Shown here in pieces: positions 15,202 to 34,366 of a DNA stretch of 64,000 bases. The notes under the pieces were generated by a model. The model saw only the letters and a list, made by a program, of their open reading frames with translations, made no database searches and had not been told where the DNA came from. Both the position numbers and the translations under genes were made by a program. How positions within the stretch are numbered: the first letter of the stretch is position 1; every line of letters begins with the position of its first letter. Origin of the DNA: a virus; IMG/VR virus record IMGVR_UViG_3300021373_002801, positions 12,581-76,580 of that record; one strand, written 5' to 3'.

Positions 15202-16266
15202 ATGGCACAGTTTAATCTCCAAACATCGTTTGATGAACTTACACTAGCAACAGGAACAACTGCCCAAAGACCAGGCGCTCCAGTAAATGGTATGATAAGA
15301 TACAATACCACTATAAGTTTGTTAGAGTTTTATGATGGATCAAATTGGAGACCTGTAACAGGATTTTCACAAGGTAATATTGGCTCAGGTGGACAAAGTA
15401 TACTAAAAAAAGGAAATAGTATTGTTCATATGTTTACCACCACAGGCAACCACACATTTACTCCTGCTCACTCAGGATACGTACAAGTATTAGTAGTAGG
15501 TGGCGGTGGCGGAACTGGCGGCGGCTGGACTGGTGGCGGCGGCGGTGGCGGAATGATTTTTAACAGATCATTCCCTGTAAGCGCAGGTTCAGGATATGGC
15601 ATAACTGTAGGCGGCGGCGCAGGCCGTGGTTCACGTAGTAATGGTGGCAATAGTGTATTTTCAACCATCACAGCAAATGGTGGCGGCTACGGCGGCTGGT
15701 GGTCCGGCGGTGATGCTGCTCCCGGCGGATCCGGCGGAGGTGGAGGAAACTCTAGTGCAGACGGAAGTAGACGCAGAGAGCCAGGCGGCTTAGGAGTTAC
15801 AGGACAAGGCTTTCCAGGAGGAAGCGGTGTAAGATTCCATGATGACGGAACAAATACTCACAATGGCGGAGGTGGTGGAGGTGCTGGCGGACCAGGACTA
15901 GACAGCCAAGACGAAGCACAAGGTCAACCGACACACGGGGGTCCAGGTGCAGCATCAGACATATTAGGCGATACCCTTTATTGGGGTGGCGGTGGCGCAA
16001 GCGGACCACACATCTGTGATGGTGGCGGTGGCAACGGCGGCGTTGGCGGCGGAGGAGGAGGAGCTGCACACTATGTTCCTAGATATCCAACTGTTGGTAA
16101 CGGACGTGGTGGCGGACAAAGTTTAAACAAAGGGCAAAATGCAACTAACAATGACGGTCATGCAAGATATGGAGGCGATGGAGCAGCTAATACTGGCGGT
16201 GGTGGCGCACATGGCGGATCAGGTCATGGCGGTGGTGGCTCTGGTATAGTTGTAGTGAGGTACTAA
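15202..16266 (+). CDS. Glycine-rich (polyglycine-II type) adhesin/tail-tip-like protein 1
   Basis: N-terminal GTTAQRP...GMIRYNT module, VLVVGGGGG, Gly runs, C-terminal GSGIVVVRY. Confidence 0.75.
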   Translation: MAQFNLQTSFDELTLATGTTAQRPGAPVNGMIRYNTTISLLEFYDGSNWRPVTGFSQGNIGSGGQSILKKGNSIVHMFTTTGNHTFTPAHSGYVQVLVVGGGGGTGGGWTGGGGGGGMIFNRSFPVSAGSGYGITVGGGAGRGSRSNGGNSVFSTITANGGGYGGWWSGGDAAPGGSGGGGGNSSADGSRRREPGGLGVTGQGFPGGSGVRFHDDGTNTHNGGGGGGAGGPGLDSQDEAQGQPTHGGPGAASDILGDTLYWGGGGASGPHICDGGGGNGGVGGGGGGAAHYVPRYPTVGNGRGGGQSLNKGQNATNNDGHARYGGDGAANTGGGGAHGGSGHGGGGSGIVVVRY

Positions 16267-16267
16267 T

Positions 16268-17404
16268 ATGGCAGATTTAAAAAATACAATAATTAATGAC
16301 ACAGGATTTTTAACACTTCCAGTGGGTAATACAGCTCAAAGACCGTCGCCTGCATCTGGAATGATACGTTTAAACAATTCTAATAACTTAATGGAATTTT
16401 ACGATAGCGGTGGCTGGCGACCAATCACTGGAGTTTCAAAAGGAAGTATTGGCTCAGGTGGACAAAGTATACTATACAACGCAAGTCATTCCGGAAAACA
16501 CGGTGGCGTTTTACACATATTTACAACCACAGGAAACCATACATTTACACCTGCATTTAGTGGAACAGTAGAAGTTCTAGTAGTAGGTGGAGGCGCATCT
16601 GGCGGCGGACACTTAGGTGGTGGCGGAGGTGCTGGCGGAATGATTTTCAACAGAGCATATCCGGTATCAAACGGAAGCGGAATAAACGTCACTGTTGGTA
16701 CTGGAGGACCTGCTAATAACTACGGAAGATCACCTCCAGGTTTCCAAGGTGGAAACAGTGTATTTGGATCACTTACTGCTGATGGCGGTGGAGGAGGAGG
16801 ATCATGGGACGGCAACGCAGCTCGAGCAGGTGGCTCAGGAGGCGGAGGTTGTACTGGTTCTAACGGAAACGGATCAAACGGACACACTGGACCAAACAAT
16901 AGTCGTAACACCAACATGGGCGGTCGTGGAGTAACTGGCGAAGGCTTTCCTGGAGGCTCAGGCATAAGATTTAACAGACAAGGTGAAGATTCACACAAAG
17001 CCGGCGGCGGAGGTGGCGCTGGTGGACCTGGATGGAGTTCAGAAGATGATTGTCACGAAGGACGTAATGGATCAGGTGGCCCAGGCGCAGCAAATGATAT
17101 ACTAGGATACACGCTTTATTGGGCAGGTGGTGGTGGCGGAGCATGCCATGTAGGAAATGAAACACACGGTTCGTCGGGTGGTATTGGTGGAGGCGGAGGT
17201 GGTACTATGAACCACGGACAGCCAAGAAGACCTCCAGGAGGTAAAAGCAGTACTGGCGGCGGCTATGCTTACAACAACGGTGGTGGAGTTAATTCAAGCG
17301 GTTATGAAGGTGGCACAGCAGGTGCAAACACAGGTAGCGGATCAGGCGGAGCATATGGCTCAGCTAAAATTGGAGGCACTGGAATAGTGATAGTAAGGTA
17401 CTAA
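16268..17404 (+). CDS. Glycine-rich adhesin/tail-tip-like protein 2
   Basis: Same architecture as protein 1; ends GTGIVIVRY. Confidence 0.75.
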   Translation: MADLKNTIINDTGFLTLPVGNTAQRPSPASGMIRLNNSNNLMEFYDSGGWRPITGVSKGSIGSGGQSILYNASHSGKHGGVLHIFTTTGNHTFTPAFSGTVEVLVVGGGASGGGHLGGGGGAGGMIFNRAYPVSNGSGINVTVGTGGPANNYGRSPPGFQGGNSVFGSLTADGGGGGGSWDGNAARAGGSGGGGCTGSNGNGSNGHTGPNNSRNTNMGGRGVTGEGFPGGSGIRFNRQGEDSHKAGGGGGAGGPGWSSEDDCHEGRNGSGGPGAANDILGYTLYWAGGGGGACHVGNETHGSSGGIGGGGGGTMNHGQPRRPPGGKSSTGGGYAYNNGGGVNSSGYEGGTAGANTGSGSGGAYGSAKIGGTGIVIVRY

Positions 17405-17405
17405 T

Positions 17406-18542
17406 ATGGCAGATTTAAAAAATACAACAATAGGTACAACAAATGCAGTTGAACTTCCGGATCAAAATTTATCAGCTACAACAGGTTCTGCAAAACTTAG
17501 ATTTAACACTACTGGTAGTTTAAATGCATTAGAGTTTTATGATGGATCAAATTGGAGACCTGTGACAGGATACAGTCAAGGTATTGTAGGTACAGGCGGA
17601 CAAACTATTAACTATACTGATCACGGTATTGTGCATATATTTACTACCACAGGAAACCATACATTTACACCATCTTTTACAGGTAATGTACAAGTAATGG
17701 TAGTAGGTGGCGGTGGTGCTAGTGGTTATGATTGGTCCGGCGGTGGCGGCGGTGGTGGAGTTATCTTTAACAGATCATTTCCAGTAAGCGCAGGCAGTGG
17801 TTATAATGTTACAGTAGGTGCAGAAGGCCGTGGAGGAAACGGCGCAGGAGGATCACCTACGATTGCAGGCCAAAACGGAGGTAATAGTGTATTTTCAACT
17901 ATAACTGCTCAAGGCGGTGGCGGAGGTGGCTCTTGGCGTAACGGTTCGCCACAGGGTTATGATAATGGACACTCGTCTGGACGTACAGGTGGATCAGGCG
18001 GTGGCGGCAGTAATTCTAGAGACGATGGAAGTAGGCGTAGACACTTAGGTGGCAGGGATACAGACGGTCAAGGTTATCCAGGTGGATCTGGTGTTAGATT
18101 TAATGCTAATAGTGAAAACGCTCACTTAGGTGGCGGTGGTGGTGGAGCCGGCGGCGGCGGCGCAAGTGCACCTGACGGTCGTCAAAACTATAGAGGAAGT
18201 TTTCGTGGAAATCAAATTTCGGGCGGAGCAGGCCGTGCTACAGACTTGCTTGGTGGAACATTATATTTTGGTGCTGGCGGAGCAGGTGGTGGACACCTAG
18301 GTTGGAATGTTAATGGCAATGCTGGAGGCATTGGCGGTGGAGGTGGAGGTAGTTTCCATCACAGCGGACCTTATGGTGGACCAAGAAAGATTGGCCAAGG
18401 TGGCGGACAAAGTCTTAATAACGGCCAAGATGGATTTCCAACAGCACGTGGCGGCTCAGGCGGATCACACACCGGCAGCGGTGGCGGTGGCGGACAATGG
18501 GGATATCCAGGCGGTAACGGTGTTGTTATAGTTAGATATTAA
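17406..18542 (+). CDS. Glycine-rich adhesin/tail-tip-like protein 3
   Basis: Same architecture as protein 1; ends GNGVVIVRY. Confidence 0.75.
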   Translation: MADLKNTTIGTTNAVELPDQNLSATTGSAKLRFNTTGSLNALEFYDGSNWRPVTGYSQGIVGTGGQTINYTDHGIVHIFTTTGNHTFTPSFTGNVQVMVVGGGGASGYDWSGGGGGGGVIFNRSFPVSAGSGYNVTVGAEGRGGNGAGGSPTIAGQNGGNSVFSTITAQGGGGGGSWRNGSPQGYDNGHSSGRTGGSGGGGSNSRDDGSRRRHLGGRDTDGQGYPGGSGVRFNANSENAHLGGGGGGAGGGGASAPDGRQNYRGSFRGNQISGGAGRATDLLGGTLYFGAGGAGGGHLGWNVNGNAGGIGGGGGGSFHHSGPYGGPRKIGQGGGQSLNNGQDGFPTARGGSGGSHTGSGGGGGQWGYPGGNGVVIVRY

Positions 18543-20107
18543 TCGTTATAAAAGTTTTCTTTTAAGAACGCATACAAAGATGGAACATGTTTAATTGCAT
18601 TGTTCCATTTTTCTTTGCGTTGATCTAAGTTGTCTATCATATCTTTAAACTCGGATTTTTTATCTATGTGTTTAGGGAATATTTTGTTCAACACAGTAAC
18701 ATCGTTTGCATTCCAATTCATACCTGCCGCCAAACAGTTTACTCCGTCATCGTCTTGTAGGAAATCAACAAAGTTTTTTTGGTAAATGCTTTGATAATAT
18801 AGTCCTTGTGTTTGTAAATTATTTAACGCTGGCATAAGATTGGTATAGCTCTTTTGTGTAATATCTTTCCAATATTTACTGTCATTTCTATGACTTAATG
18901 CATAGTGCATACTTACGAAATTTGCCCAATAGTTAAATGTATCGTCGCATACAAGATTAAATTCGTCTCTATCCCATTGACTAATGCTGTTAGATCTTAC
19001 TAACATTCTTACTAAATTTGTTGCAAAATCGTGGGTAGTAAGTAAGCCTGTACTTTCTAAAGGCTCAATAAATCCTGCACTTAATCCTATAGCTACAACA
19101 TTCTTAACCCAAAGTTTTTCATGTATGCCTACTCTCATCTCAATATCTTTAAAAGTGCAATTAGATGTATCATATCCTTTACTGTTAAGATGTGTTATAA
19201 AATCAATTTTTGCTTGTTTGGGATTTATATAATTATCGCTATAAACATACCCAGTACCAATCCTTGACCATAAAGGAATATTCCAGACCCAACCATTTTC
19301 TAATGCACTACAGTCTGTTACACTATCTAGTTGTTTTTCCTTATCAGTGTAATCTACTCTTGTTGCCCATGCTCTATTATTTGGTAAAATATGTTCATAA
19401 CTTTTAAAAGGAACTTTCATCGCTTTACCTAGTAATAAACTATTGAAGCCTGTACAGTCTATAAATAAATCTCCAAATATTTTATCGCCATTGTCTAATA
19501 CTATGCTATCAATGCCTATATCTGATTTATTACAAGTAACAACTTCCCCATTTACATATTTTACTCCTAAGTTTTTACAAAATTTATCTCTAAGCCATAT
19601 ACCTAATTTAGCAGCATCAAAATGAAAAGCAGTATCATTATAAAAATCAAATCCTTTTAAATCAGGATGATCAACAAGCATTTTATTTTCTTTTACTAAT
19701 GACATTTGAGGATAGTAACAATCTACGTAATCATCTGAAGGCGTTTCTGGATATAAAGTTTTTTTAATAAACCAATCATCTCTTTGGTGCATACAATTAT
19801 CAAATAACGGCTGTCCAAAGGGATAATACCAAGACCCGCTGTCATGTTTATGAAAGTTATTAAATTTTATAGCAAGTTTGTAACTTGCATCTGTTTCTTT
19901 TACAAAATCTTTATCGTGTATTCCTACCATCCTTAACCAAGCACGTATTCCTCCTACTGTACTTTCGCCAACTCCCACTGTAGGTATATTAGGACTTTCT
20001 ACTACAGTAATATTAACATTGTTAATCTGAGATGCTATTGTAGCGGCAGTCATCCATCCGGCACTACCTCCTCCCACTATAATAATATCTTGTATATCAC
20101 TGCTCAT
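18539..20107 (-). CDS. Flavin-dependent halogenase (tryptophan halogenase/PrnA family)
   Basis: GGGSAGW FAD motif, VGVGEST, ASYKLAI (catalytic Lys position), GWVWNIP, GFIEPLESTG. Confidence 0.9.
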   Translation of the reverse strand: MSSDIQDIIIVGGGSAGWMTAATIASQINNVNITVVESPNIPTVGVGESTVGGIRAWLRMVGIHDKDFVKETDASYKLAIKFNNFHKHDSGSWYYPFGQPLFDNCMHQRDDWFIKKTLYPETPSDDYVDCYYPQMSLVKENKMLVDHPDLKGFDFYNDTAFHFDAAKLGIWLRDKFCKNLGVKYVNGEVVTCNKSDIGIDSIVLDNGDKIFGDLFIDCTGFNSLLLGKAMKVPFKSYEHILPNNRAWATRVDYTDKEKQLDSVTDCSALENGWVWNIPLWSRIGTGYVYSDNYINPKQAKIDFITHLNSKGYDTSNCTFKDIEMRVGIHEKLWVKNVVAIGLSAGFIEPLESTGLLTTHDFATNLVRMLVRSNSISQWDRDEFNLVCDDTFNYWANFVSMHYALSHRNDSKYWKDITQKSYTNLMPALNNLQTQGLYYQSIYQKNFVDFLQDDDGVNCLAAGMNWNANDVTVLNKIFPKHIDKKSEFKDMIDNLDQRKEKWNNAIKHVPSLYAFLKENFYND

Positions 20108-20825
20108 AGGGACATCCTTTTAATTTTGCTAGACTTTTATATCTTTCGTTTAATGGTCTAAATGTATGTTCGTTACGTATATTATTGCATAATTTTATAT
20201 CTTCCCATGGACACTTTTGTTGTTGTAGTTTTACAATATTATCACTGTAAAATTTAAAATATGCAATAGCATCGCCTTTTTTGATTTTAATTTTATCTTT
20301 TATTTTTTTACATTCAAATACAATTTCAGCAGGTCTTGTCCATTTTGCAATGTCAAACTCGCCAGGATATAATGTTGTTTTGTCTGTAAAATCGTTGTAG
20401 TGCAAAAATGCAGGTAGCATTTGCATTTGCATACTGTCTGATGTTTGGAAAATATTTAACCAATCAATACCTATCATAGGATATACATTCTTTCCACGTT
20501 GACTATCAAACAAAAATCTGGTGTCAATTAAACAATTAAATTGTTCTTGATTAAGATTAGGACATGTAATTTTTACATCACCAGTTTTTTCATTTACATC
20601 TATTTCAATAGTAAGATCGTATGGAGCATGAAACACAAACATATTCTTTATGAAGTCTGTATGTGCTGGACACTTTAAAACAATATTTCCTTTACGTTCG
20701 CTAATATAAGTTTTTTGTAGAGGAACTAAAACATCTTGCGAATTATCTAACAAATCAATTAAACACGCAGGATGGTCTATATCCCATTCACTGCTGGTTA
20801 TAAACGACCAATTAATTAATGCCAT
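20097..20825 (-). CDS. Hypothetical protein (KCPA...KKGDAIA motifs), co-transcribed with halogenases
   Basis: 242-aa ORF overlapping both neighbouring halogenase genes on the same strand. Confidence 0.7.
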   Translation of the reverse strand: MALINWSFITSSEWDIDHPACLIDLLDNSQDVLVPLQKTYISERKGNIVLKCPAHTDFIKNMFVFHAPYDLTIEIDVNEKTGDVKITCPNLNQEQFNCLIDTRFLFDSQRGKNVYPMIGIDWLNIFQTSDSMQMQMLPAFLHYNDFTDKTTLYPGEFDIAKWTRPAEIVFECKKIKDKIKIKKGDAIAYFKFYSDNIVKLQQQKCPWEDIKLCNNIRNEHTFRPLNERYKSLAKLKGCPYEQ

Positions 20826-22287
20826 GTTTTTTTATTTCTCTTAATCTATCTAATTCTGTGCTATGATGATGTCCGTCTAAATATCTAAATTTTTCAAATT
20901 CAACATAATTCTTTATTATTATGTTTTTTGCTGTTTCCTTATCTATACCAATATTTTTTTCTGTTAACTTATATCCTAGTTGAATAAGGAATATTGTCCA
21001 ATTAGGGCCACCAAACATTGTGTTATATTTAACTGTAGTAGGTAGTTGTATATTGGGATTTTTAAAGTCTTCGATATAACTTAACATCTCATCACTGGGG
21101 ACAAAAAGGTCGTTTACATAATTCCAAAAAGGTGTAGTCCTAATATTATCTGCATAATGCATTGCAACGAAGTTAACACAATTTTCAAATACAATTTTCA
21201 TTTGTATGTTAAAATAATCAACTTCGTTTTTTGTATAGTGATTTTCGTTTAATATTCCGTTTAACTGACCAACTGCATAGGTCATTAGTGCTACACCTGA
21301 ACTTTCTAAAGGTTCAATAAACCCTGCGCTAAGTCCTATACTTACAATGTTATCGTGCCACTGATCTTCGTTATAATAAGGATCCCAATTTATTACTTTT
21401 AAATTATCTTTATCTATTCTATTATCCCAATAATCTACAAAATAATTTTTAGCATCATCTATATCAGTTATGTTCCTGTTGAATAGCATACCAGTACCAA
21501 TTCTATCTTGTACAGGTATTTTCCAAACCCATCCATGATCTACAGCATCGCATTTGACATACGGGGTTAGTTCATTTTCCCTATCATTGTACGGAACATG
21601 CCCTGCAATAGCAGTGTTAACAAATAAACGTTTGTCCAAATTTACACGTTTACAATTTTTTCGTAAAACTTGTTTAAACCCAGTGCAGTCGATATACAAA
21701 TCGCTTTTAATTATGTCGCTGTTTTGTAAATGTAAACAGTCTATACCTTCATTTTGATTATAATCAATATCGATTACATCACTGTTTATAATAGTAACTT
21801 TGTTTTCTAATTTTTTCCTTACATAAGACACAAGTTTACCACAATCAATGTGTACAGCATAGCGTTCTAATTCTGTCATGTCTACACTATTTTTCATGCT
21901 ATTTTCATAAAACGCTGTACAATATTTTTTAAAATCTAAATCCTGCACATTTGTATATAGATCATAAAGATTCCAGTTTTTTAAAATTCTATCATTGCCT
22001 TTATAAAAAGGGTGCCAAATATCTTCACCAGGTTTTTGCCAATTCGTAAAAAGTATACCTGACTTATAAGCACTTTTTATTTCTAAAAACCAATCTTCTA
22101 TAGGAAATCCTGCTTCCTCAAGAAACGGTCTAAAAGTTAAAAGCGTAGCCTCTCCAACACCAATAGGTTCTGGTACTTCTTTGTCAACTACAGTAATGTT
22201 AATATGTGGTTGTCTATGGCTAAGATATGCAGCTGTAAGCCATCCAGCAGTACCGCCGCCTACAATAGTAAGTGTGTTGACTTTCAT
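20812..22287 (-). CDS. Flavin-dependent halogenase (tryptophan halogenase family)
   Basis: GGGTAGW, IGVGEAT, SAYKSGI, GWVWKIP, GFIEPLESSG; AAAGGA RBS. Confidence 0.9.
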   Translation of the reverse strand: MKVNTLTIVGGGTAGWLTAAYLSHRQPHINITVVDKEVPEPIGVGEATLLTFRPFLEEAGFPIEDWFLEIKSAYKSGILFTNWQKPGEDIWHPFYKGNDRILKNWNLYDLYTNVQDLDFKKYCTAFYENSMKNSVDMTELERYAVHIDCGKLVSYVRKKLENKVTIINSDVIDIDYNQNEGIDCLHLQNSDIIKSDLYIDCTGFKQVLRKNCKRVNLDKRLFVNTAIAGHVPYNDRENELTPYVKCDAVDHGWVWKIPVQDRIGTGMLFNRNITDIDDAKNYFVDYWDNRIDKDNLKVINWDPYYNEDQWHDNIVSIGLSAGFIEPLESSGVALMTYAVGQLNGILNENHYTKNEVDYFNIQMKIVFENCVNFVAMHYADNIRTTPFWNYVNDLFVPSDEMLSYIEDFKNPNIQLPTTVKYNTMFGGPNWTIFLIQLGYKLTEKNIGIDKETAKNIIIKNYVEFEKFRYLDGHHHSTELDRLREIKKHGIN

Positions 22288-22309
22288 ATATTGTATCCTT
22301 TGTTTAATG

Positions 22310-22317
22310 TACTTATA
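22310..22317 (-). promoter_or_regulatory. Late promoter-like variant TATAAGTA (minus strand), overlapping the plus-strand box
   Basis: Reverse complement of tacttata, upstream of the RBS of the 22287 gene. Confidence 0.45.
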
Positions 22318-22321
22318 AATA
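22314..22321 (+). promoter_or_regulatory. T4-type late promoter TATAAATA
   Basis: Exact T4 late consensus, 5 nt before ATG 22327. Confidence 0.7.
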
Positions 22322-22326
22322 TTGCT

Positions 22327-22902
22327 ATGCTTATAGTTGACGATCTGATATCAAAACCGTATCAAGAAGAAATAAAAGAAAATTTCTTAGATATTGAAAA
22401 TAAAAATTCTTATAAGTTTCCTTGGTCTTTTGTGCCGGATGTAACATCGGCAGATGTTGGCATTGTTGCTCCAGCAATGATGCATAATTTTTGTTGGGAG
22501 CGGGGAAATTATTCTCAATATTTTGATTTAGTTGAGCCAATTGCAATAGCAGGAGCAAATGCAGTAAACTATCCTGCAACCACAGTAATACAAGCTAGAA
22601 GTTTTTTACAATATCCTCTAAGCAAAACATTTCACGATAAACAAGTTGATCGCTTGCATATAGATTTAGATTATAAACATTTGGTTGTGCTATATTATGT
22701 TTTAGATTCTGATGGCGATACTATTATAACAAATAAAACATATGACGAACATAATGAACATTATTTAGATAAAATTGATGATGTTGTAATGCGAGTCACA
22801 CCAAAACAAGGTAGAGCTGTAATTTTTGATGGTAAGTACTATCATACAGCAGAACAGCCTAAAGATAATTTGAGATGCATTATAAATTTTAATGTAGAGT
22901 AA
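22327..22902 (+). CDS. 2OG-Fe(II) oxygenase-family protein
   Basis: HID...YYH...R-C-I-I-N-F-N. Start moved from 22204, which overlaps the divergent gene, to ATG 22327 (MLIVDD). Confidence 0.8.
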   Translation: MLIVDDLISKPYQEEIKENFLDIENKNSYKFPWSFVPDVTSADVGIVAPAMMHNFCWERGNYSQYFDLVEPIAIAGANAVNYPATTVIQARSFLQYPLSKTFHDKQVDRLHIDLDYKHLVVLYYVLDSDGDTIITNKTYDEHNEHYLDKIDDVVMRVTPKQGRAVIFDGKYYHTAEQPKDNLRCIINFNVE

Positions 22903-22905
22903 AAA

Positions 22906-23517
22906 ATGATAGAATTTGAAGTTATAGATAATTTTTTACCTAATGATCAGTTTACGAAACTGTCTAGCTATCTACTGTCTCAAGATTTTCCTTGGTTTTA
23001 CACAGAGCATGTTTCATTAGATCCTATAGATAACAATATTAAAAATCCTGAAGCAATAGAAACAGACGGATATGCACATTTGTTTTATGATAGAGATAAC
23101 GGATTAGAAGCTGTTACGCACAAAGTAATGGAAGACTTTAATAAACAAATACAAATTAAATTTGGTGTAACCTACAATGATATAATCCGATCAAGAGCTA
23201 GTATAAAGCATCCAAAAATAGGATACACTGAAGAAAATTATAACTTACCCCATGTTGATTATTTTATACCTCATCTTAGTTTAATTTATTATCTTAATGA
23301 TTGTGACGGCGATACAAGAATATTTGAAGAAAAATTTACTCCAGTACCCTCTGGCCCTAATTTAGGGATAAGTTATGATACGTTTACGGTTAAAGATAGA
23401 GTATCACCAAAAGCAAATCGACTTCTTGTTATTAACGGACTGCGATATCATACAGCAAGTAACCCTATAAAAAGTAAAAGACGTGTAATTATTAATATTA
23501 ATACGGAGGCAAAATGA
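22906..23517 (+). CDS. 2OG-Fe(II) oxygenase-family protein
   Basis: PHVD...YHTAS...RRVIININ. Confidence 0.85.
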   Translation: MIEFEVIDNFLPNDQFTKLSSYLLSQDFPWFYTEHVSLDPIDNNIKNPEAIETDGYAHLFYDRDNGLEAVTHKVMEDFNKQIQIKFGVTYNDIIRSRASIKHPKIGYTEENYNLPHVDYFIPHLSLIYYLNDCDGDTRIFEEKFTPVPSGPNLGISYDTFTVKDRVSPKANRLLVINGLRYHTASNPIKSKRRVIININTEAK

Positions 23518-24164
23518 GAATAGATCATGCATTTCCAATTCCTATAGTTACACTAGATTTAGATAAATCTGCATTAGATGATGCACACAAAAAAGTATGT
23601 ACTTACATTAAAGAAAAAATGCCAGAAAGCACACAAGAAAAAAATAAATTGCTTACTACATACTACCATGATAATAAAAACTTTTTAGGCACAATAAATG
23701 CTATTCCTATATTAGAGGAAATTAATAAACATGTGAGGGGATTTTTAGAATTAAGGGGATTTAGACCTGATTGTTATGTTGAAATTACTAGTTGGTTACA
23801 AATAAACCAGCCTGGTTCTTTGTTTAACAGACACGATCATTATGGAGCAATAGTTAGCGGAGTGTTTTATTTAGAAGTTCCTGAAAATTCTGGAAACTTA
23901 AAATTTCATAATCCTTTAGAACCAAGACGTGCATCTGATGTCTTTTTTGATAGGATAAGAAAAGAAGAAAATCAGTATAATTATGATTATATTGAATATG
24001 TCCCCAAAGTAGGCGAAATGATAATGTTTGAATCTTGGCTACAACATAGCGTAGAGATTAATAAAGCAGATAAAGATAGGTTATCTGTTTCGTATAATGT
24101 TTGGGCAGACGTAGACGATACAGTAAAAAAATTACGTAATGAAAGAGGCGATAATGGATCCTAG
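23514..24164 (+). CDS. 2OG-Fe(II) oxygenase-like protein (TIGR02466-type, HxH)
   Basis: HDH..AIVSGVFYL...FESWLQHSV...RLSVSYN. Confidence 0.85.
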   Translation: MRIDHAFPIPIVTLDLDKSALDDAHKKVCTYIKEKMPESTQEKNKLLTTYYHDNKNFLGTINAIPILEEINKHVRGFLELRGFRPDCYVEITSWLQINQPGSLFNRHDHYGAIVSGVFYLEVPENSGNLKFHNPLEPRRASDVFFDRIRKEENQYNYDYIEYVPKVGEMIMFESWLQHSVEINKADKDRLSVSYNVWADVDDTVKKLRNERGDNGS

Positions 24165-24738
24165 TGTTGAAATGTGGTTTCCAGTAGCAATATACAAAGA
24201 CACTGGAATTATATCTATACAAGAAAATACAAAAATTTACAATCGTGGTTTAGAACTACAAAAGACTGTTGCTAATGGAGGTAAAGAGTGGTACGGTGAC
24301 ACATACAATACTCATGACACTTTCGATTTAACCAACGATGAAATATTTCATCCATTATTAGATCAAATCACAGCCCATGCACACAATTTTGCTGAAATGC
24401 ACGGATCAAGCTCTGAACTAAAACTGTCGGGCGCCTGGCTTAATATTAATTCTGAAGGCACATTTCAAGAGTTTCATACTCATAATAATGCAATTTTTAG
24501 TTGTGTGTATTGGGTAGCAGCACCACCAGGATCAGGTAAATTAATTTTCGAAGACCCTAAAGAACCAGATATGTTACAAATTAGAGACATAAAATCTAGA
24601 AATAGTTTAAGTTTTACACGAATAGGATACGAAGCAGAGGAACGCAAATTACTAATTTTTAGATCTTATCTTCGTCATATGGTAGAACCTTGTAAAAATA
24701 AAACTCCAAGAATGAGTATTGCTGTAAACTATAGTTAA
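24154..24738 (+). CDS. 2OG-Fe(II) oxygenase-like protein (TIGR02466-type)
   Basis: HTH..AIFSCVYWV...FRSYLRHMV...RMSIAVN. Likely start is ATG 24154 after GAGG (track start 24139). Confidence 0.8.
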   Translation: MDPSVEMWFPVAIYKDTGIISIQENTKIYNRGLELQKTVANGGKEWYGDTYNTHDTFDLTNDEIFHPLLDQITAHAHNFAEMHGSSSELKLSGAWLNINSEGTFQEFHTHNNAIFSCVYWVAAPPGSGKLIFEDPKEPDMLQIRDIKSRNSLSFTRIGYEAEERKLLIFRSYLRHMVEPCKNKTPRMSIAVNYS

Positions 24739-24742
24739 ATGA

Positions 24743-25381
24743 ATGCTTAATAAATTAGAAATAAACCCCAATTTTAAAGTTACCGAAGAAGTTTTTAAAG
24801 ATAGTAAGATTTACTATGTTGATGAAATTTATAAAAATCCTGACGAGCTAGTTTCTTATTTGCTGACTATAGAAAAACCAGATCTACACAAAGCAAACGA
24901 TATTCCTAGTTACAACGGTGTACATTTTTTAGATTACAGACACAATTTTATTGATTATGATGTAGAAAAGGTCGCAGATGAATTAGCAAAAGTTTGTGGA
25001 CAAAGGTGTCTACCTCCACATAGGAGTGTTGTAGCAACAAATTGTACAAAATTTATTGACAAAAACTTTAATAATTACAAAGAAAATTATTGGTGTCCTC
25101 ATGTTGACTTTGAAGGATATATTGGAATAATTTATCTAAATCCTACTACAAGTCAAGGAACTAATTTGTACGAACAACTAGAAGACGATGTTTATGATGG
25201 ACCTGAACATTATCAACCATGGCGTCCTGCAGGCAAATACAAAATAATTAAAACACTTGAGGGTAAGTTTAACAGAGCAATTCTTTTTGATGCTGAATAT
25301 TTTTTACACGGAATGAGTGTTACTAATGATGATTTTTTTAAAATATTTAGACTAAATCAAGTACTATTCTTTAGCCCGTAG
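24743..25381 (+). CDS. 2OG-Fe(II) oxygenase-like protein (DUF6445-like)
   Basis: PHVD..YIGIIYL...GTNLY...FNRAILFD..LHG...RLNQVLF. Confidence 0.75.
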   Translation: MLNKLEINPNFKVTEEVFKDSKIYYVDEIYKNPDELVSYLLTIEKPDLHKANDIPSYNGVHFLDYRHNFIDYDVEKVADELAKVCGQRCLPPHRSVVATNCTKFIDKNFNNYKENYWCPHVDFEGYIGIIYLNPTTSQGTNLYEQLEDDVYDGPEHYQPWRPAGKYKIIKTLEGKFNRAILFDAEYFLHGMSVTNDDFFKIFRLNQVLFFSP

Positions 25382-26824
25382 TCTTTGTAAAAAGTCTTTA
25401 TGTCCTATCATTACTTTATTCATACCTAATACATTACGTTCTTCACGAATGCCGTCAGCAAGTTTTCTATTTGCATCACTCAACATATTGTATTCAGAGA
25501 GAAGACCGTCTCGATTAAATAATTCTAATCCTGCTAAAATTTGTATGAAATGAGGATCTTTAAATAATGCATAGCTACCAGTATGTATAAAATCTTCTAG
25601 TATAGGCAAATTGTTTTTCCAATGAGCTAACCAATCAGATAAATCTCCCGGTAATGGTACATTTTTTATATCTTTCCAAAATTCATTATGACCTTTATTT
25701 GTAACATAATGCAACGCAACAAAATCTCTTATATTATGCAACACAATTTCTATTTGTTTGTTGTATTCGTCTATTGACTTTTTGGTATAGTTGGGAAGTC
25801 GGTGCATAAGCAAAAATGTTTGATTAATACTAGTGCCAATACTAGTCGCCTCTAAAGGTTCTACAAAACTTGCACTTAGCCCTATTGCACAACAGTTGTT
25901 TATCCATACACGATCTAATGCACCCGGATCAAACTTCAAATGTTTACCAACATTTATTTTCTTACCAAGCAATTCTTCTACTTCTTGCTGTGCTTGATCA
26001 GCAGTTATATAATCACTGTCGAAAATATATCCATTGCCGCAACGATCCCAAACCGGAATAGTAAACATCCATCCATAATCCATTGCTCGCGCTGTAGTCC
26101 AAAGATCAATTTCTTGCTTTTGTTCTGTAGGAAATACAATAGCAGATTTCATTTTTAAATATTTGCTGTAACTATTCCACTTTGCTCCTAATTTATTAAT
26201 TAACAACCGTTTAAATCCAGTGCAATCAATAAAAAAATCACTAGCATAGTTTGTTTTTTCACCTACAATATAACTGATATCGCCTTGATCAGATAAAACA
26301 ACATCTTTTATTTCGTCATCTAATATGTTTATACCTTTTTGTTCTGCAATTATATGCAAATAATCATTAAGTTTTTGTGTATTAAAATGAAACTGATTGT
26401 AGGGACTGTCGTTATCTAAATGCCATTCGTCGACTGTATTTTCCCAAGTTCCTAAAGGATTTAGTTCTTTGTTTGACCAATCATGTGAAATTACTTTACC
26501 GTAGTATGTTCTATACTGGCCGTTTATAATTTCATGTTCAGGACCTATGCTGTGTAAATAATCTTTGTCGTGCCAATTTTTGAACATGATGCCGCTTTTA
26601 AATGTTGCATCACAGTTTTTTATTATGTCTTGAAAAGTCAATCCTATATAATTCATAAATTCGTTCCAGTGTTCGGTGCTACCCTCACCCACACCAATAA
26701 TTCCTATTTTTTCAGAACGAATTATTTGTATTTTTTTACTAGGAAAACGAGTTTTTAAAATTAAGGCGGCAACAAGTCCTGCTGTACCGCCCCCTACAAC
26801 TGAAATTTTCTCTAACTTATTCAA
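25364..26824 (-). CDS. Flavin-dependent halogenase-family protein
   Basis: GGGTAG, IGVGEGS, ATFKSGI, GWMFTIP (variant), FVEPLEATS. TTG start after AAAGGA. Confidence 0.85.
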   Translation of the reverse strand: MNKLEKISVVGGGTAGLVAALILKTRFPSKKIQIIRSEKIGIIGVGEGSTEHWNEFMNYIGLTFQDIIKNCDATFKSGIMFKNWHDKDYLHSIGPEHEIINGQYRTYYGKVISHDWSNKELNPLGTWENTVDEWHLDNDSPYNQFHFNTQKLNDYLHIIAEQKGINILDDEIKDVVLSDQGDISYIVGEKTNYASDFFIDCTGFKRLLINKLGAKWNSYSKYLKMKSAIVFPTEQKQEIDLWTTARAMDYGWMFTIPVWDRCGNGYIFDSDYITADQAQQEVEELLGKKINVGKHLKFDPGALDRVWINNCCAIGLSASFVEPLEATSIGTSINQTFLLMHRLPNYTKKSIDEYNKQIEIVLHNIRDFVALHYVTNKGHNEFWKDIKNVPLPGDLSDWLAHWKNNLPILEDFIHTGSYALFKDPHFIQILAGLELFNRDGLLSEYNMLSDANRKLADGIREERNVLGMNKVMIGHKDFLQRLRAKE

Positions 26825-26850
26825 TTTAGTATTTTCCTTTTAATGTTAAC

Positions 26851-26858
26851 AATAAATA
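26851..26858 (+). promoter_or_regulatory. Late promoter-like box AATAAATA
   Basis: 5 nt before ATG 26864, the same spacing as at 22314. Confidence 0.6.
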
Positions 26859-26863
26859 TCTGT

Positions 26864-27490
26864 ATGAACAATATACATCTAGAACACCATCCAATGTTTG
26901 TTACATCTGCTTATGTTACTTATGTCGAAGATATAGACAACACCAAGATAAGTGAACATGTATATCACTTAGATAAAAATGTTCCTAATGTTAGACGACA
27001 GCGTAGCAATGCCGGAGGCTTTCAAACTAATGATATTTACCCAATGCCCTATGATTTTGACGAAACAGGTAAATTATTTGATAATTTTATTAAACCGTCG
27101 GTTGGTACTATATTAAATGGTTGGCAAGTTCCGCATGATATTGATAGTTTTAGTTATTGGTATAATTTAAATCCAAAATACACATACAACAGAGAACATA
27201 TACATGCAAATGCTCTTGTTAGCGGAGTGTATTATGTTAAAGTTCCTAAAGATAGTGGTAGGATAGTTTTTAATCGTAGTACCAACGAATACGATCGTAT
27301 GCATAATATTCAAACTATTTACGCATCTAACGATTCTATAGTAGATAATCCACAAACAAATAATTCACATTGGTTTATTCCAGTAGAAGGAATGCTTGTG
27401 CTTTTTCCTAGTCATGTCAGTCATTATGTAGAACAGAATGTTACAGATGACGAAAGTGATGGTCGAATATCACTAAGTTTTAATTTTTAA
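26864..27490 (+). CDS. 2OG-Fe(II) oxygenase-like protein (TIGR02466-type)
   Basis: RSNAGGFQ, HIH..ALVSGVYYV, FPSHVSHYV, RISLSFNF. Start set at ATG 26864 (track 26843). Confidence 0.8.
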   Translation: MNNIHLEHHPMFVTSAYVTYVEDIDNTKISEHVYHLDKNVPNVRRQRSNAGGFQTNDIYPMPYDFDETGKLFDNFIKPSVGTILNGWQVPHDIDSFSYWYNLNPKYTYNREHIHANALVSGVYYVKVPKDSGRIVFNRSTNEYDRMHNIQTIYASNDSIVDNPQTNNSHWFIPVEGMLVLFPSHVSHYVEQNVTDDESDGRISLSFNF

Positions 27491-31137: not shown

Positions 31138-31735
31138 ATGTAAATACTACTACTACTCGTCTTTCGTGTAATGACGGATATTTATGGGCATGATAACAAC
31201 CTTTAAATTGTGATACTTGCCATTTTTGTGCAGGTAATTCGTTCCAATCATTTATTTCCTCGTTCCATACTAGCGTAGGAGCTGTTGGATTATCTGTTAG
31301 ATATAGTAACCAATTATAGTGATGCCAAGTATGATCTTCATGCGGCACGGTTATAGCATTTTCGCCATTATACCAATTACAATTTACATTTGCTCTAAAA
31401 ATATTATGATAAGATTTGTTATTTTGGCTCATCCAATTATGAAAAATTTCAAAAAAGAATTCTGCATACCCTTCACTAAAATGATCAGTTGGTCTATCAG
31501 TGTGTTTAACATGTTCTTCTTCAGTTCTGCGTAGAAGTGCATGACTTAAGAAAGGACCATTTACATATGATCCCTGTTTTATTTTTTCGGGAGTATTTTC
31601 AGGTGGAATATAAGTTGTTTGTTTAGATACATAGTACCAAGGAAAATGATAACCTAAAACATCATTTTCAATAATTGCTTTGTGCTGGTCCGACAGTAGT
31701 CCATCTGAATATGTTGTATCTTTTGGTAAAATCAT
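31130..31735 (-). CDS. 2OG-Fe(II) oxygenase-family protein
   Basis: FPWYY, PHEDH, YHAH, RRVVVVFT. Start set at ATG 31735 (MILPKD), 5 nt after GTTAAATA (track 31762). Confidence 0.75.
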   Translation of the reverse strand: MILPKDTTYSDGLLSDQHKAIIENDVLGYHFPWYYVSKQTTYIPPENTPEKIKQGSYVNGPFLSHALLRRTEEEHVKHTDRPTDHFSEGYAEFFFEIFHNWMSQNNKSYHNIFRANVNCNWYNGENAITVPHEDHTWHHYNWLLYLTDNPTAPTLVWNEEINDWNELPAQKWQVSQFKGCYHAHKYPSLHERRVVVVFTYA

Positions 31736-31740
31736 ATACA

Positions 31741-31748
31741 TATTTAAC
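31741..31748 (-). promoter_or_regulatory. Late promoter-like box GTTAAATA (minus strand)
   Basis: 5 nt before the minus-strand ATG at 31735. Confidence 0.55.
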
Positions 31749-31809
31749 GATAAATGACACATAGCTTATGAAATACGAATCAAAAAAATATTAAATAATA
31801 ATGTGCGTA

Positions 31810-31817
31810 GATAAGTA
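31810..31817 (+). promoter_or_regulatory. Late promoter-like variant GATAAGTA
   Basis: Lies in the divergent intergenic region, upstream of the GGAGG RBS (31834-31838) and ATG 31845. Confidence 0.4.
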
Positions 31818-31844
31818 AATGTGTATGCTACCTGGAGGAAAGAA

Positions 31845-32462
31845 ATGAACACAGAAAATTCAAGCGGATTTACACAGCCAGCTATGGAACGCACCGAATC
31901 GGATAAGCCAGACCAAGAAGCAAGTTTACAGATTACTTCAATAAACTTTAATCCACTGTTTGACAACGAGGAAGTCAAAACCATATGTGAAAATACTATT
32001 GACGAACTTTGGATGCCTATCAAAGTTATGGGTAACGAAGATTTACATAAAGGGTTTAGGCAAAAGCTAAGAGGAGATGTTGCAGATTTTCCTTTTACTA
32101 AGATTAGAGATATAACAAAATCTGCAAACGATCAAATCTACAATTTTGATCTATTAGGGATTATTGATCAAGATTTCCCCCAAGTCTATAAATATACTGA
32201 AGAATGTTATTATAAAACCCATATAGATTTGAATGTTCTTGCACCTACAAGAAAAATTACTTGGATAATAAATTTATCAGATGAAGACGAATACGAAGGT
32301 GGAAATATTTCTTTTTTAAATATTGACACTACCGAAGTAAATACTAACACAAAGGGATCAATTTTAATTTTTCCTTCTTTTATACCTTATAGTATTGATA
32401 AAATTACTAAAGGAGAAAAGAAATTTATTGTTGGTCATGTGCATGGAGCTGTTTTCCGTTGA
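31845..32462 (+). CDS. Prolyl-4-hydroxylase-like 2OG-Fe(II) oxygenase homolog with a degenerate active site
   Basis: HID...RKITWIINLS..EYEGG...FPSFIPYSI..TKGEKK. Start ATG 31845 after GGAGG (track 31821). Confidence 0.75.
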   Translation: MNTENSSGFTQPAMERTESDKPDQEASLQITSINFNPLFDNEEVKTICENTIDELWMPIKVMGNEDLHKGFRQKLRGDVADFPFTKIRDITKSANDQIYNFDLLGIIDQDFPQVYKYTEECYYKTHIDLNVLAPTRKITWIINLSDEDEYEGGNISFLNIDTTEVNTNTKGSILIFPSFIPYSIDKITKGEKKFIVGHVHGAVFR

Positions 32463-33247
32463 TTTTAGATTATGATTATTGGTATTTTGAAAAAGCAATA
32501 GATCCATCCCTCTGTGATCATATAATTCAACAGGGTCTTGCAAAAATGAAAGCACAAGAAGATCAATTTGGTAAAGAAGTATCTATTGCCACTACAGGTG
32601 GTTGGCAACACAAAGGGTCTGAAGGCTACAAAAAAGCAGTAAATGATAAATCTATAGAAGAATTAAAACAAGAAGGATTAGATCCTTCTGAAGCATATGT
32701 AAGAGACTCAAACATTACATGGCTAAACGACGAACCTTTGTTTGAAATGGTTCAGGCTTTTGTTAAAGAAGCTAACATACAAGCAGGTTGGAATTTTGAT
32801 TGGGATTATACCGAAGAATTTCAATTTACAAAATATGGACCAGGCCAATTTTACGGATGGCATGTTGATATGGGCTCAAAACCCTATCGTGAATTTAAAC
32901 CTGAAGAAGATAATTGGAAACTTAATCCTAACGGAACTCCCATGTTAGATACATTTGGTAATCCTTTGACTGAAGATAATTTAGCAACTTCAAATCCTAA
33001 TTTAATTGGTAAGATAAGAAAACTAAGTGTGACAATTAGTTTAAATAAACCTGAAGAATACGAAGGAGGAAATTTAAAATTTGACTTTGGACCGCATGCC
33101 GATGAAAGATTCCATGAATGTACAGAAATTAGACCACAAGGCAGTGTTATAGTATTTCCATCACATGTCTACCACCAAGTAACACCAGTCACAAAAGGTA
33201 CAAGATATAGTTTAGTGGGTTGGAATTTAGGATATCCATTTAGATGA
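32459..33247 (+). CDS. Prolyl-4-hydroxylase-like 2OG-Fe(II) oxygenase (cyanophage-type)
   Basis: FQFTKY..GQFYGWHVD...RKLSVTISL..EYEGG...FPSHVYHQVTPVTKGTRYSLVGW. Confidence 0.9.
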   Translation: MILDYDYWYFEKAIDPSLCDHIIQQGLAKMKAQEDQFGKEVSIATTGGWQHKGSEGYKKAVNDKSIEELKQEGLDPSEAYVRDSNITWLNDEPLFEMVQAFVKEANIQAGWNFDWDYTEEFQFTKYGPGQFYGWHVDMGSKPYREFKPEEDNWKLNPNGTPMLDTFGNPLTEDNLATSNPNLIGKIRKLSVTISLNKPEEYEGGNLKFDFGPHADERFHECTEIRPQGSVIVFPSHVYHQVTPVTKGTRYSLVGWNLGYPFR

Positions 33248-33888
33248 CAAATCCAGAGCTTTTTAAACAAAATTTATATGTTGACTGTAAATCAATCGTA
33301 CCAAAAGATATATGCAATCTAGTATCTAAATACTGTTTGATGAGAGAAGAAAATAAATTAGATGCACCTGAAGAAGCAGACGGCCAAGTACCATTTTCTC
33401 ATAGCGTGTACGGTGATACACTAATGGAAACATTAGAATTTTTCTTGCTACCCTATATGGAATCAAATACTGGACTGAGACTAGCTCCTACTTACAGTTA
33501 TTATAGAGTATATAGGCCCGGAATGGAACTTGAAAGGCATAAAGATAGAGAAAGTTGCGAAATAAGCACATCGGTGTGTTTTGATTTTAAATATAACGAT
33601 ACATCAGAAGATTATCATTGGAGTATGTATGTAGATAAAGAATCTGTAAATACACCTGTACTGGGAGATTTTGTAAGTGCGGGTAATCCAGGAATTCCAG
33701 TACAACAGTCACCAGGTGATATTTTAATATATAGAGGTGTTGATATCGAACATTGGAGAGATCCTTTTGTAGCAGGAATAAATAGTTATCATATACAAGG
33801 ATTTTTCCATTATATAGACAAAGACGGACCTTTTTATCCTGAATGGGTATATGACAAGCGTCCTAGATTAGGCTATAAAGAATTTTAG
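33244..33888 (+). CDS. 2OG-Fe(II) oxygenase-like protein
   Basis: PTYSYYRVY..G.EL.RHKDRESCEIS...GD..IYRG..IEHWR. Confidence 0.8.
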   Translation: MTNPELFKQNLYVDCKSIVPKDICNLVSKYCLMREENKLDAPEEADGQVPFSHSVYGDTLMETLEFFLLPYMESNTGLRLAPTYSYYRVYRPGMELERHKDRESCEISTSVCFDFKYNDTSEDYHWSMYVDKESVNTPVLGDFVSAGNPGIPVQQSPGDILIYRGVDIEHWRDPFVAGINSYHIQGFFHYIDKDGPFYPEWVYDKRPRLGYKEF

Positions 33889-33894
33889 ATTTTG

Positions 33895-33902
33895 TATAAA
33901 TA
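33895..33902 (+). promoter_or_regulatory. T4-type late promoter TATAAATA
   Basis: Exact consensus, intergenic, followed by AAGGAG and ATG 33926. Confidence 0.75.
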
Positions 33903-33925
33903 CTATTGTAATTTAAGGAGTTGGA

Positions 33926-34366
33926 ATGGCTATTAAAAATGTCCCCGCAAGCGATGTAGTTGCTGTTCAAGATGCATGTTATGTGATGGGTGTAGAAGAA
34001 GTTTGGTGCAGAATCAAATTTAAAGACTGTGAAAACTTTTGTGAATACCTTGCAATGCCTGATTCAGATGAACCACTTTCAAGAGAGCTTTACACAAAAT
34101 TAAATAATGGTGACTACGGTGAATTATCACACGGAACTGATAGCTATCGTACACAGCCAAAAACTCAAGCTGAGCTAGAAGCAGACGTAAAAGCAACTAG
34201 AAACCAGCTACTACTAGAATCAGATTTTTCTGGGTTACCTGATGTATCTGCTTCAATGACTGCTAGTAAAAGAGCAGAATGGTCTGCATATAGAACAGCG
34301 TTACGTGATCTTACTACACAAACTAGATTTCCTTGGGATCCAGATTGGCCAACTAAGCCGTCATAA
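33926..34366 (+). CDS. Phage tail-fibre assembly chaperone (Tfa/tail assembly chaperone-like)
   Basis: C-terminal RNQLLLESD...WSAYRTALRDL..Q..FP...WPTKP signature. Confidence 0.8.
   Translation: MAIKNVPASDVVAVQDACYVMGVEEVWCRIKFKDCENFCEYLAMPDSDEPLSRELYTKLNNGDYGELSHGTDSYRTQPKTQAELEADVKATRNQLLLESDFSGLPDVSASMTASKRAEWSAYRTALRDLTTQTRFPWDPDWPTKPS

Follow-up and report, generated by a model that had tools for sequence, protein, structure and literature searches.

An expanded Syn9-type array of halogenases and 2-oxoglutarate oxygenases beside the tail-fibre genes of an uncultured phage lineage

The substrates of phage halogenases and of the many cyanophage 2-oxoglutarate (2OG) oxygenases have been an open question since the first cyanomyovirus genomes. 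The window is a 64,000-nucleotide stretch of DNA, positions 12581–76580 of the 76.6-kb IMG/VR contig IMGVR_UViG_3300021373_002801, and tail-fibre-type genes make up nearly all of it. Within it, 17 back-to-back genes at 18539–33888 encode five halogenases (HAL1–HAL5), 11 proteins of Fe(II)/2OG-oxygenase type and one conserved protein, X242. A first-pass annotation, made from the sequence alone, had taken this island for a toolkit that halogenates and hydroxylates receptor-binding proteins. The region is an unusually large (5 + 11 enzymes), expanded member of the array type known from phage Syn9, in a new uncultured phage lineage. By gene order, it belongs to the distal tail-fibre cassette, both in the lineage of the window and in cultured marine T4-like phages, and it appears to be transcribed from late-type promoters along with the fibre genes.

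The gene count and the gene types of that annotation are real, and its five halogenases are confirmed by family matches and intact catalytic motifs. HAL1–HAL5 all match the Pfam family Trp_halogenase (PF04820), with E values from about 1e-79 to 1e-102, and they are mutually just 27–49% identical, HAL4 and HAL5 sharing 49%. The GxGxxG motif that binds flavin adenine dinucleotide is present in all five as GGGSAG, GGGTAG or GGGTSG at residues 7–17. The catalytic Lys column, equivalent to K79 of PrnA, is kept in 5/5 (Y/F/P/L-K) and aligns in HAL5 with the Lys of PDB entry 6NSD; the EP(L/M)E(S/A) motif is also kept in 5/5. The WxWxIP motif, which blocks mono-oxygenase chemistry in flavin halogenases, is canonical in HAL1, HAL2 and HAL5 and takes the variant forms WMFTIP in HAL3 and WVWRGP in HAL4, these two being less certain. 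No partner flavin reductase is seen in the window, which comes from a contig holding only about 21% of the genome.

Eleven of the 12 small island genes encode 2OG-oxygenase-like proteins, as had been claimed, though the evidence is uneven among them. Their products are named here by the coordinates of the original open reading frames, for four of which the likely true starts differ: 22327 (not 22204), 26864 (not 26843), 31735 (not 31762) and 31845 (not 31821). Six pass the Pfam cut-offs, four for 2OG-FeII_Oxy_5 and two for 2OG-FeII_Oxy_3 (Oxy_5 and Oxy_3 below). The full set sorts into four Oxy_5/TIGR02466 proteins, two Oxy_3 proteins of the prolyl 4-hydroxylase (P4H)/PKHD type, three of phrog_274, one of phrog_1644 and one labelled 'ferrochelatase'; pairwise BLAST matches among them are mostly insignificant, and at least five mutually distant families are represented. 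The 22204 product (start 22327) matches Oxy_3 weakly. The 22906, 31130 and 24743 products have no solid Pfam match; their orthologues keep an invariant HxD...H...R, and the families are interlinked by profile comparison. The HxD...H pattern is invariant in the orthologue sets of six products (22204, 22906, 24743, 31130, 32459 and 33244). In the 31821 product only the first His is flagged, and its assignment therefore rests on the Pfam match. The four Oxy_5 proteins contain HxH...H in place of HxD...H, as in the family PF13759/TIGR02466. An invariant Arg, at the position facing the 2OG C5-carboxylate, lies 10–14 residues past the distal His in nine of the 11 proteins and is not flagged for the 31821 and 33244 products.

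By sequence, the Oxy_5 proteins match PDB entries 3BVC and 2RG4, both uncharacterised, and the Oxy_3 profile matches PiuC/YbiX, the PBCV-1 prolyl hydroxylase and the P4H of P. putida. The AlphaFold model of the 33244 product has a predicted local distance difference test (pLDDT) score of 86 and reaches a Foldseek probability of 1.0 to 4J25, 3NNF, 3OBZ and 5C5T; as modelled, the protein folds into a double-stranded beta-helix, and the nearest structures are those of prolyl hydroxylases, the halogenase domain of CurA and PHYHD1. Only modelling revealed this fold; hhalign of the 33244 family against the Oxy_3 profile returned nothing and profile searches of the PDB gave no meaningful match; PDB searches with the phrog_274 family gave none either. 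For the oxygenases other than the 33244 and Oxy_5 products, we infer a double-stranded beta-helix as well. No island protein matches JmjC or Cupin_8, and the array would accordingly be classed by sequence as a variant of the Syn9 type without the JmjC member. The PHROG labels 'DNA endonuclease V' (274), 'minor coat protein' (1644) and 'ferrochelatase' (2954) were rejected as annotation drift, as these families look like Fe/2OG oxygenases. The same labels have spread into the RefSeq annotations of Syn9 and S-RIM44.

X242 lacks the metal triad and has no recognisable family: profile searches of the PDB and Pfam are empty even with a 38-sequence alignment, hhalign against the Oxy_3 profile gives nothing, and tblastn finds no match among cultured phages. 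More than 200 homologues exist, the best 120 of them at 47–88% identity, and part of the ESM Atlas neighbours carry DUF6065. Cys52, Cys213 and Cys238 are invariant, and the AlphaFold model is beta-rich but poor (pLDDT 55). The Syn9 array includes a dUTPase-fold protein with a conserved cysteine (PMC2938197).

The absence of scaffold-synthesis genes and the nature of the flanks were also described correctly. Neither a non-ribosomal peptide synthetase, a polyketide synthase nor a transporter occurs among the window proteins scanned against Pfam (three small fibre-side open reading frames lay outside the scan). The island contains no free-standing small open reading frame and no leader-bearing precursor gene of the kind used for peptides that are ribosomally synthesised and modified post-translationally (RiPPs), and there is no room for one because the intergenic gaps are just 18–58 bp. 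On one side lie three PF21722 (Gly_rich_2) proteins at 15202–18542, which score 37–43 bits against a cut-off of 24.3, consist of 30–32% Gly and are, by sequence, candidate fibre-tip or adhesin-like proteins. On the other side lies a PF16778 fibre-assembly chaperone at 33926–34366, followed by phage GroES and GroEL genes.

Linkage between such islands and Gly-rich tail genes, which the first-pass annotation had predicted across genomes, holds in the clade of the window and in Syn9, S-RIM44 and HTVC008M. Searches anchored on three genes (HAL5, Gly2 and X242) recovered more than 25 related viral contigs that keep the island at 45–99% protein identity, with a content that varies from three to five halogenases and includes extra Oxy_5 genes. 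The border is constant in 13 of the 13 X242-anchored loci that reach it, running from a big fibre through a small protein, an S74 fibre and three Gly-rich genes into the island, and the GroES/GroEL pair constantly adjoins the island and the fibre chaperone in this clade. In a 152.8-kb contig, 4/4 halogenases and 3/3 Gly_rich_2 matches stand side by side. The source phage is an uncultured T4-like virus with a gp23-type capsid and an estimated genome of about 360 kb, because the contig is 21% complete according to CheckV and a relative's contig of 23% completeness carries a T4-type gp23 capsid gene. Near-identical DNA is found in salt-marsh and coastal seawater metagenomes from many studies. Megablast of the island, and of the relative L015, gives no match among cultured phages, and the phage is therefore distant from all isolates.

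In Syn9, the fibre genes gp32–34 are followed by the Gly-rich genes gp35/36/38/39, gp40, the halogenases gp41/42 and dioxygenases up to gp54. The 197-kb isolates of S-RIM44 carry a 3496-residue fibre, three Gly-rich genes, two halogenases, seven oxygenase-like genes (one of them JmjC_2) and then the neck gene gp13. HTVC008M has a reduced form, in which an S74 fibre and a Gly-rich gene lie two genes from five oxygenases and gp13. The common order of the cassette is fibre, small protein, S74-tipped fibre, Gly_rich_2 proteins and enzymes, with a fibre chaperone or neck genes coming next. The most informative comparison comes from S-RIM44, in which isolates sharing 98% identity at gp13 have either the full fibre–enzyme block (197-kb type) or an alternative block (193-kb type) which, as in Syn1, consists of a different giant fibre, two other small genes and a single oxygenase. 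Because near-identical isolates differ by the whole fibre/Gly-rich/enzyme block, the fibre, its accessory proteins and the enzymes move together as one cassette. Pfam domains were sought on the giant fibres of S-RIM44 and Syn1 for a correlation with enzyme load, and none was found.

Exchange is also visible inside the island. The window is a mosaic, with 85–98% DNA identity to the relatives L009–L011 over most of the island and 73% at the first oxygenase gene. The segment 26864–30505 (O5_c, HAL4 and HAL5) is only 69–84% identical to L009–L011 and 91–99% identical to another lineage, represented by contig IMGVR_UViG_3300040806_002483. At the nucleotide level, O5_c is 91–92% identical to the L004 type versus 79–85% to others, and HAL4 and HAL5 are 97–99% identical to L004 versus 66–87% to the six other relatives compared. 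These three genes make up a sub-cassette that was exchanged recently.

The halogenase tree resolves three types. Clade A comprises HAL1, HAL2, the two fibre-linked S-RIM44 enzymes and the enzymes of another fibre-adjacent island, and its members have so far been found in the tree only in fibre-linked islands. Clade B unites HAL3 with the HTVC008M enzyme. Clade C contains HAL4, HAL5 and singletons of other phages in unrelated contexts, and HAL5 nests with these singletons. HAL1, X242 and HAL2 are the strongest candidates for a role specific to the fibres. HAL4 and HAL5 represent a mobile type that also occurs in phages without Gly_rich_2 proteins, and they may have a different substrate.

The claim that late-promoter-like boxes drive the island stands as to their position at unit starts and their conservation in relatives, and fails as to abundance: TATAAATA is not enriched across the window (6 found versus 10.6 expected). 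ATAAATA occurs 17 times, and eight of these sites lie no more than 60 nucleotides upstream of gene starts in sense orientation; among the genes behind them are three of the fibre type (5875, 36482 and 54295), the chaperone, GroES and two oxygenase units. More generally, TATAA(A/G)TA-type boxes precede the island units as they do the fibre genes, the chaperone and GroES. The box of the 22327 unit is kept as TATAAATA or CATAAATA, 5–6 nucleotides before the ATG, in L004, L006–L009, L039, L040 and L028, and that of 26864 (TATAAATA or AATAAATA with N5 before the ATG) is conserved in 12 related loci. TTAAATA-N5-ATG is conserved at the start of the 31735 minus-strand unit (31733–31748), whose first genes are the 31130–31735 gene and O5_d and which continues into HAL5 and HAL4. 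In addition, a TATAAGTA box with a Shine–Dalgarno sequence is conserved upstream of HAL2 and HAL3, and GATAAGTAA is conserved ahead of 31845. In the relatives, the boxes are kept while the surrounding spacer sequence drifts. Because the box lies just 5–6 nucleotides before the ATG and this spacing is conserved, the three oxygenase units at 22327, 26864 and 31735 would have leaderless or near-leaderless late mRNAs. A GATAAATA box is placed at the head of the co-directional gp40–54 array of Syn9, as it is ahead of the fibre and Gly-rich genes of that phage. Late co-expression of the island with the fibre genes, also predicted by the first-pass annotation, is a reasonable inference from motifs, since late-type boxes are conserved in relatives and head the Syn9 array. 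Furthermore, salt-marsh RNA libraries include contigs that match the Gly-rich genes, several island genes and the chaperone exactly, which is compatible with transcription in nature; these data are contigs, in which uncovered bins are not evidence.

The array type was described in 2010, when Iyer, Abhiman, de Souza and Aravind reported for Syn9 ten tandem dioxygenases of at least five families, among them a MINA/NO66-type JmjC enzyme, together with two tryptophan halogenases (PMC2938197). They termed it unprecedented and proposed that it synthesises halogenated, hydroxylated secondary metabolites (PMC2938197). Like that array, the island combines tandem, mutually distant Fe/2OG dioxygenases with genes of the tryptophan-halogenase family and a conserved non-enzyme protein; the Oxy_5, phrog_274-type and 'ferrochelatase'-labelled families are common to both, according to hidden Markov models built here, and both stand directly after fibre and Gly-rich genes, with a late-type box at the head of the Syn9 array. 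Unlike the Syn9 array, the island has five halogenases instead of two, its divergently promoted units occupy both strands where the Syn9 genes form one co-directional array, no JmjC member is detected in it, and a fibre chaperone and GroES/GroEL follow where Syn9 has small genes. X242 has no BLAST-level match in cultured phages, and the host and the phage lineage, uncultured and with an estimated genome of about 360 kb, are different. The S-RIM44 block (KX349294, 91348–112321) resembles the window in its giant fibre, three Gly_rich_2 proteins and two clade A halogenases followed by oxygenases, of which the Oxy_5, phrog_274, phrog_1644 and 'ferrochelatase' types are shared. It differs in being smaller and co-directional, in containing a JmjC_2 enzyme, in ending at the neck gene gp13 and in having shorter (about 253 residues), nearly Trp-free Gly-rich proteins. 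The JmjC_2 gene of that block (KX349294, 111034–111759), of ribosomal-oxygenase type, is annotated merely as hypothetical.

Characterised relatives provide partial precedents. VirX1 of cyanophage Syn10 (PDB 6QGM) is of the same family, with an E value of 1.7e-45 for HAL5 against 6QGM. VirX1 is one characterised enzyme, and small molecules were used for its assay; the halogenases of the window score lower against VirX1 than against bacterial Trp halogenases. The flavin halogenases SrpI, MibH and ChlH act on Trp in a peptide or protein (PMC10858898, PMC10286304, PMC12518702). They set a family precedent for Trp halogenation within polypeptides, and MibH (5UAO) is among the PDB matches of HAL5; those RiPP systems, unlike the window, have a leader-bearing precursor and other RiPP enzymes. 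The PBCV-1 enzyme vCPH (5C5T), the mimivirus enzyme L230 (6AX6) and the P4H of B. anthracis are matched by the Oxy_3 profile and by the 33244 model. In sequence the resemblance is remote, with E 3e-7 as the best value. Prolyl and lysyl hydroxylases of viruses can hydroxylate virus-encoded structural proteins of the collagen-like kind, and characterised enzymes of the P4H/PKHD and JmjC_2 (MINA/NO66) types are mostly protein hydroxylases. A P4H/Ofd1-like phage oxygenase was detected in CsCl-purified virions of S-SCSM2R (PMC12801897). Cyanophage 2OG oxygenases have otherwise been treated as metabolic or repair genes, their functions untested (PMC3037559, PMC2984593, PMC9602691). Our literature search found no paper proposing fibre tailoring and no report of virion hydroxylation or halogenation in cyanophages.

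The reading that we tentatively prefer is that the island is a module of the fibre cassette, expressed late, which tailors polypeptides made by the phage. The enzymes would act late in infection: the P4H/PKHD-type, PhyH-like and Oxy_5 enzymes would hydroxylate side chains, and the flavin-dependent halogenases, fed by host-reduced flavin, would halogenate aromatic side chains. Fibre, adhesin or Gly-rich proteins would serve as substrates, with modification taking place prior to or in the course of assembly assisted by GroEL and the chaperone. The virion-tailoring toolkit of the first-pass annotation is supported by the linkage to Gly-rich tail genes and by the conserved late-type boxes, and is weakened by HAL5 relatives outside a fibre context and by a Trp-free Gly-rich protein in S-RIM44; taken together, it is plausible without being probable. 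Its choice of substrate, variable loops rich in Trp, Tyr and His on the Gly-rich proteins, went too far. Within the clade, the main Trp (GGxGGxW) belongs to the conserved framework, and it is absent from the S-RIM44 counterparts, so that the loops were rejected as halogenation sites and the idea of 'Trp loops of Gly-rich proteins' as the substrate lacks support in that form. Should fibre proteins be modified, the enzymes may target other residues or the large fibres.

Several observations weigh against fibre tailoring. A modified residue has been observed nowhere. Orthologues of HAL5 at 75–77% identity, each with an adjacent Oxy_5 gene, adjoin gp46/47-like recombination genes and a dehydrogenase, and one at 75% is carried by L015 (IMGVR_UViG_3300006841_000093), a 134.5-kb T4-like phage that is 100% complete and has no Gly_rich_2 gene. 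In another contig a halogenase lies more than 29 kb away from its 11 Gly-rich genes, the HTVC008M halogenase is located between terS and terL, and the third S-RIM44 halogenase has talC, hli and tRNA genes as its neighbours. Of the three Gly-rich proteins that adjoin halogenases in S-RIM44, one lacks Trp and the remaining two contain one or two. Collagen-like Gly-X-Y repeats, as substrates for P4H enzymes, occur in no window protein, and the genome carries further Gly-rich genes without adjacent enzymes. The support for late timing comes from sequence motifs, and the contigs in RNA libraries may reflect DNA carry-over. In cyanomyoviruses the stretch that separates fibre from neck genes is plastic, and the linkage of fibre and island could therefore be hitch-hiking; moreover, much of the synteny is inherited and represents few independent events. 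We know of no protein substrate for the Oxy_5/TIGR02466 and PhyH-like families. The array type is not new and was read in 2010 as secondary-metabolite chemistry, and VirX1 halogenates many small molecules in vitro, according to the account of Gkotsi 2019 given in PMC10452541.

A rival explanation is the one that Iyer et al. proposed for the Syn9 array (PMC2938197), namely secondary-metabolite or auxiliary-metabolic chemistry in which the enzymes act in series on free amino acids or host small molecules. They would yield halogenated or hydroxylated metabolites or draw down 2OG, and the fibre region would be a spot where accessory genes accumulate. The broad small-molecule range of VirX1, as cited in PMC10452541, fits this picture, as do the HAL5-type genes beside a dehydrogenase outside fibre contexts, the Oxy_5 and PhyH-like families not known as protein modifiers, and the best PDB relatives of HAL5, which are free-tryptophan halogenases. 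Sullivan et al. 2010 also link the 2OG oxygenases of cyanophages with the status of 2OG and nitrogen (PMC3037559). Against it stand the late-type promoter boxes, which resemble those of structural genes, and the lack of any scaffold-forming enzyme, carrier protein, ligase or exporter among the scanned proteins of the 76.6-kb contig or detected in relatives. Cyanophage metabolic genes are usually of the early or middle class. The transfer of fibre and enzymes as one cassette and the restriction of clade A halogenases to fibre-linked islands also speak against small-molecule chemistry, which we regard as possible, if somewhat unlikely.

Modification of host proteins or of non-structural phage proteins, tuning late protein synthesis or folding, is improbable. 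The prolyl hydroxylase of P. putida modifies EF-Tu, and YcfD modifies L16; the 33244 model best matches that P. putida enzyme, the Oxy_3 profile matches P4H/PKHD enzymes, and phage GroES/GroEL adjoins the array. A MINA/NO66-type JmjC enzyme is present in the Syn9 and S-RIM44 arrays (PMC2938197). Such targets nevertheless leave the constant adjacency and co-transfer with fibre and Gly-rich genes unexplained and give the halogenases no role, and 16 divergent enzymes are a large number for a few conserved host targets. A role in nucleic-acid modification or repair, with oxygenases acting on DNA or RNA bases in an AlkB- or TET/JBP-like manner, is very improbable. For those 2OG genes of Syn9 that have P4H domains and adjoin uvsX and uvsY, a role in repair has been suggested (PMC2984593), and phrog_274 bears the label 'DNA endonuclease V'; the proteins so labelled show the HxD..H..R oxygenase pattern, however, so that the label looks like drift, searches of Pfam, NCBIfam and the PDB give no match to the AlkB or TET/JBP families, and the island lies in the fibre module and not in the replication module. 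The remaining probability falls to mixtures of these readings or to something else.

Table 1. Features of the island, its flanks and its promoter boxes (positions in the window).
Feature	Position	Strand	Evidence or remark
Small fibre-associated protein, 107 residues, first gene of recurring unit	14061..14384	+	phrog_11338 tail fiber
Short fibre protein with C-terminal intramolecular chaperone (Peptidase_S74)	14395..15201	+	PF13884 E 8.5e-12; many tail-fibre PHROGs
Three tandem Gly_rich_2 proteins	15202-16266, 16268-17404, 17406-18542	+	PF21722; phrog_2295, phrog_863
HAL1, clade A flavin-dependent halogenase	18539..20107	-	PF04820 E 1e-101; motifs; tree
X242, conserved unknown	20097..20825	-	start and stop overlap HAL2 and HAL1
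HAL2, clade A flavin-dependent halogenase	20812..22287	-	PF04820 E 1e-79; motifs; tree
TATAAATA box	22314..22321	+	five bases ahead of ATG 22327; complement overlaps HAL2 upstream box
Five-gene oxygenase unit	22327..25381	+	
phrog_274-type oxygenases	22327-22902 and 22906-23517	+	HxD..H..R
Oxy_5/TIGR02466 oxygenases	23514-24164 and 24139-24738	+	HxH..H..R
phrog_1644-type oxygenase	24743-25381	+	HxD..H
HAL3, clade B flavin-dependent halogenase	25364..26824	-	PF04820 E 1e-92; WMFTIP variant
AATAAATA box	26851..26858	+	five bases ahead of ATG 26864
O5_c, Oxy_5 oxygenase	26864..27490	+	PF13759 E 1.4e-19
HAL4, clade C halogenase	27480-28979	-	PF04820 E 1e-87
HAL5, clade C halogenase	28976-30505	-	PF04820 E 3e-96
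O5_d, Oxy_5 oxygenase	30505-31137	-	
phrog_274-type oxygenase	31130-31735	-	
P4H/PKHD-type oxygenases	31845-32462, 32459-33247	+	PF13640 E 5e-8 and 2e-14
Predicted 2OG-oxygenase-fold protein mislabelled 'ferrochelatase'	33244-33888	+	model pLDDT 86; Foldseek
TATAAATA box	33895-33902	+	before chaperone gene; conserved
Tail-fibre assembly chaperone	33926..34366	+	PF16778 Phage_tail_APC E 1.7e-12; PHROG tail fiber assembly
TATAAATA box	34399-34406	+	before GroES; conserved
Phage GroES, GroEL	34434-34742, 34735-36429	+	PF00166, PF00118

Elsewhere in the window, the 14061–14384 protein has a paralogue at 61417–61752, and relatives have the same position occupied. There, at the window end (61417–64000, Gly-rich from 62621), a small protein, an S74 fibre and a Gly-rich protein recur as a unit, without enzymes beside it. 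The upstream part of the contig (1–12700, L003) contains three more open reading frames matching the Gly-rich profile, two of them long and fibre-like, also without adjacent enzymes. The giant fibre-type proteins at 263–7866 and 48326–61395 have three to six CBM_5_12 carbohydrate-binding repeats each, with aromatic-rich modules, and one of them additionally contains an E1_FCCH-like domain. A fibre-region protein of 1303 residues (37770–41681) begins with a subtilase (Peptidase_S8) domain, and a fibre-type protein of 1921 residues (41843–47608) has a bactofilin-like stretch at residues 1494–1573. The best matches of GroES and GroEL in the phage collection, all below 50% identity, are an Acinetobacter phage, a Bacteroides phage and two Salmonella records filed there.

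The window itself contributes hardly any new chemistry; together with its relatives, it gives sharper form to a proposal open to testing, in which the array lies in the fibre cassette, is preceded by late-type promoters and is exchanged together with the fibre. Since Syn9 and both cassette types of S-RIM44 are in culture, the substrate question is experimentally accessible. If the fibres prove unmodified, the older secondary-metabolite reading gains weight. The widest form of the proposal is that marine T4-like phages halogenate and hydroxylate their own fibre or Gly-rich tip proteins and swap the enzyme sets with the fibre tips as host-range cassettes; we consider this doubtful and, on balance, unlikely. 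Were it true, halogenated structural proteins would be described in a virus for the first time, and fibre tailoring would provide the natural substrate still missing for VirX1 and other viral halogenases. With modified fibres, predicting host range from sequence only would overlook a layer, and protein halogenases of a new class would be at hand.

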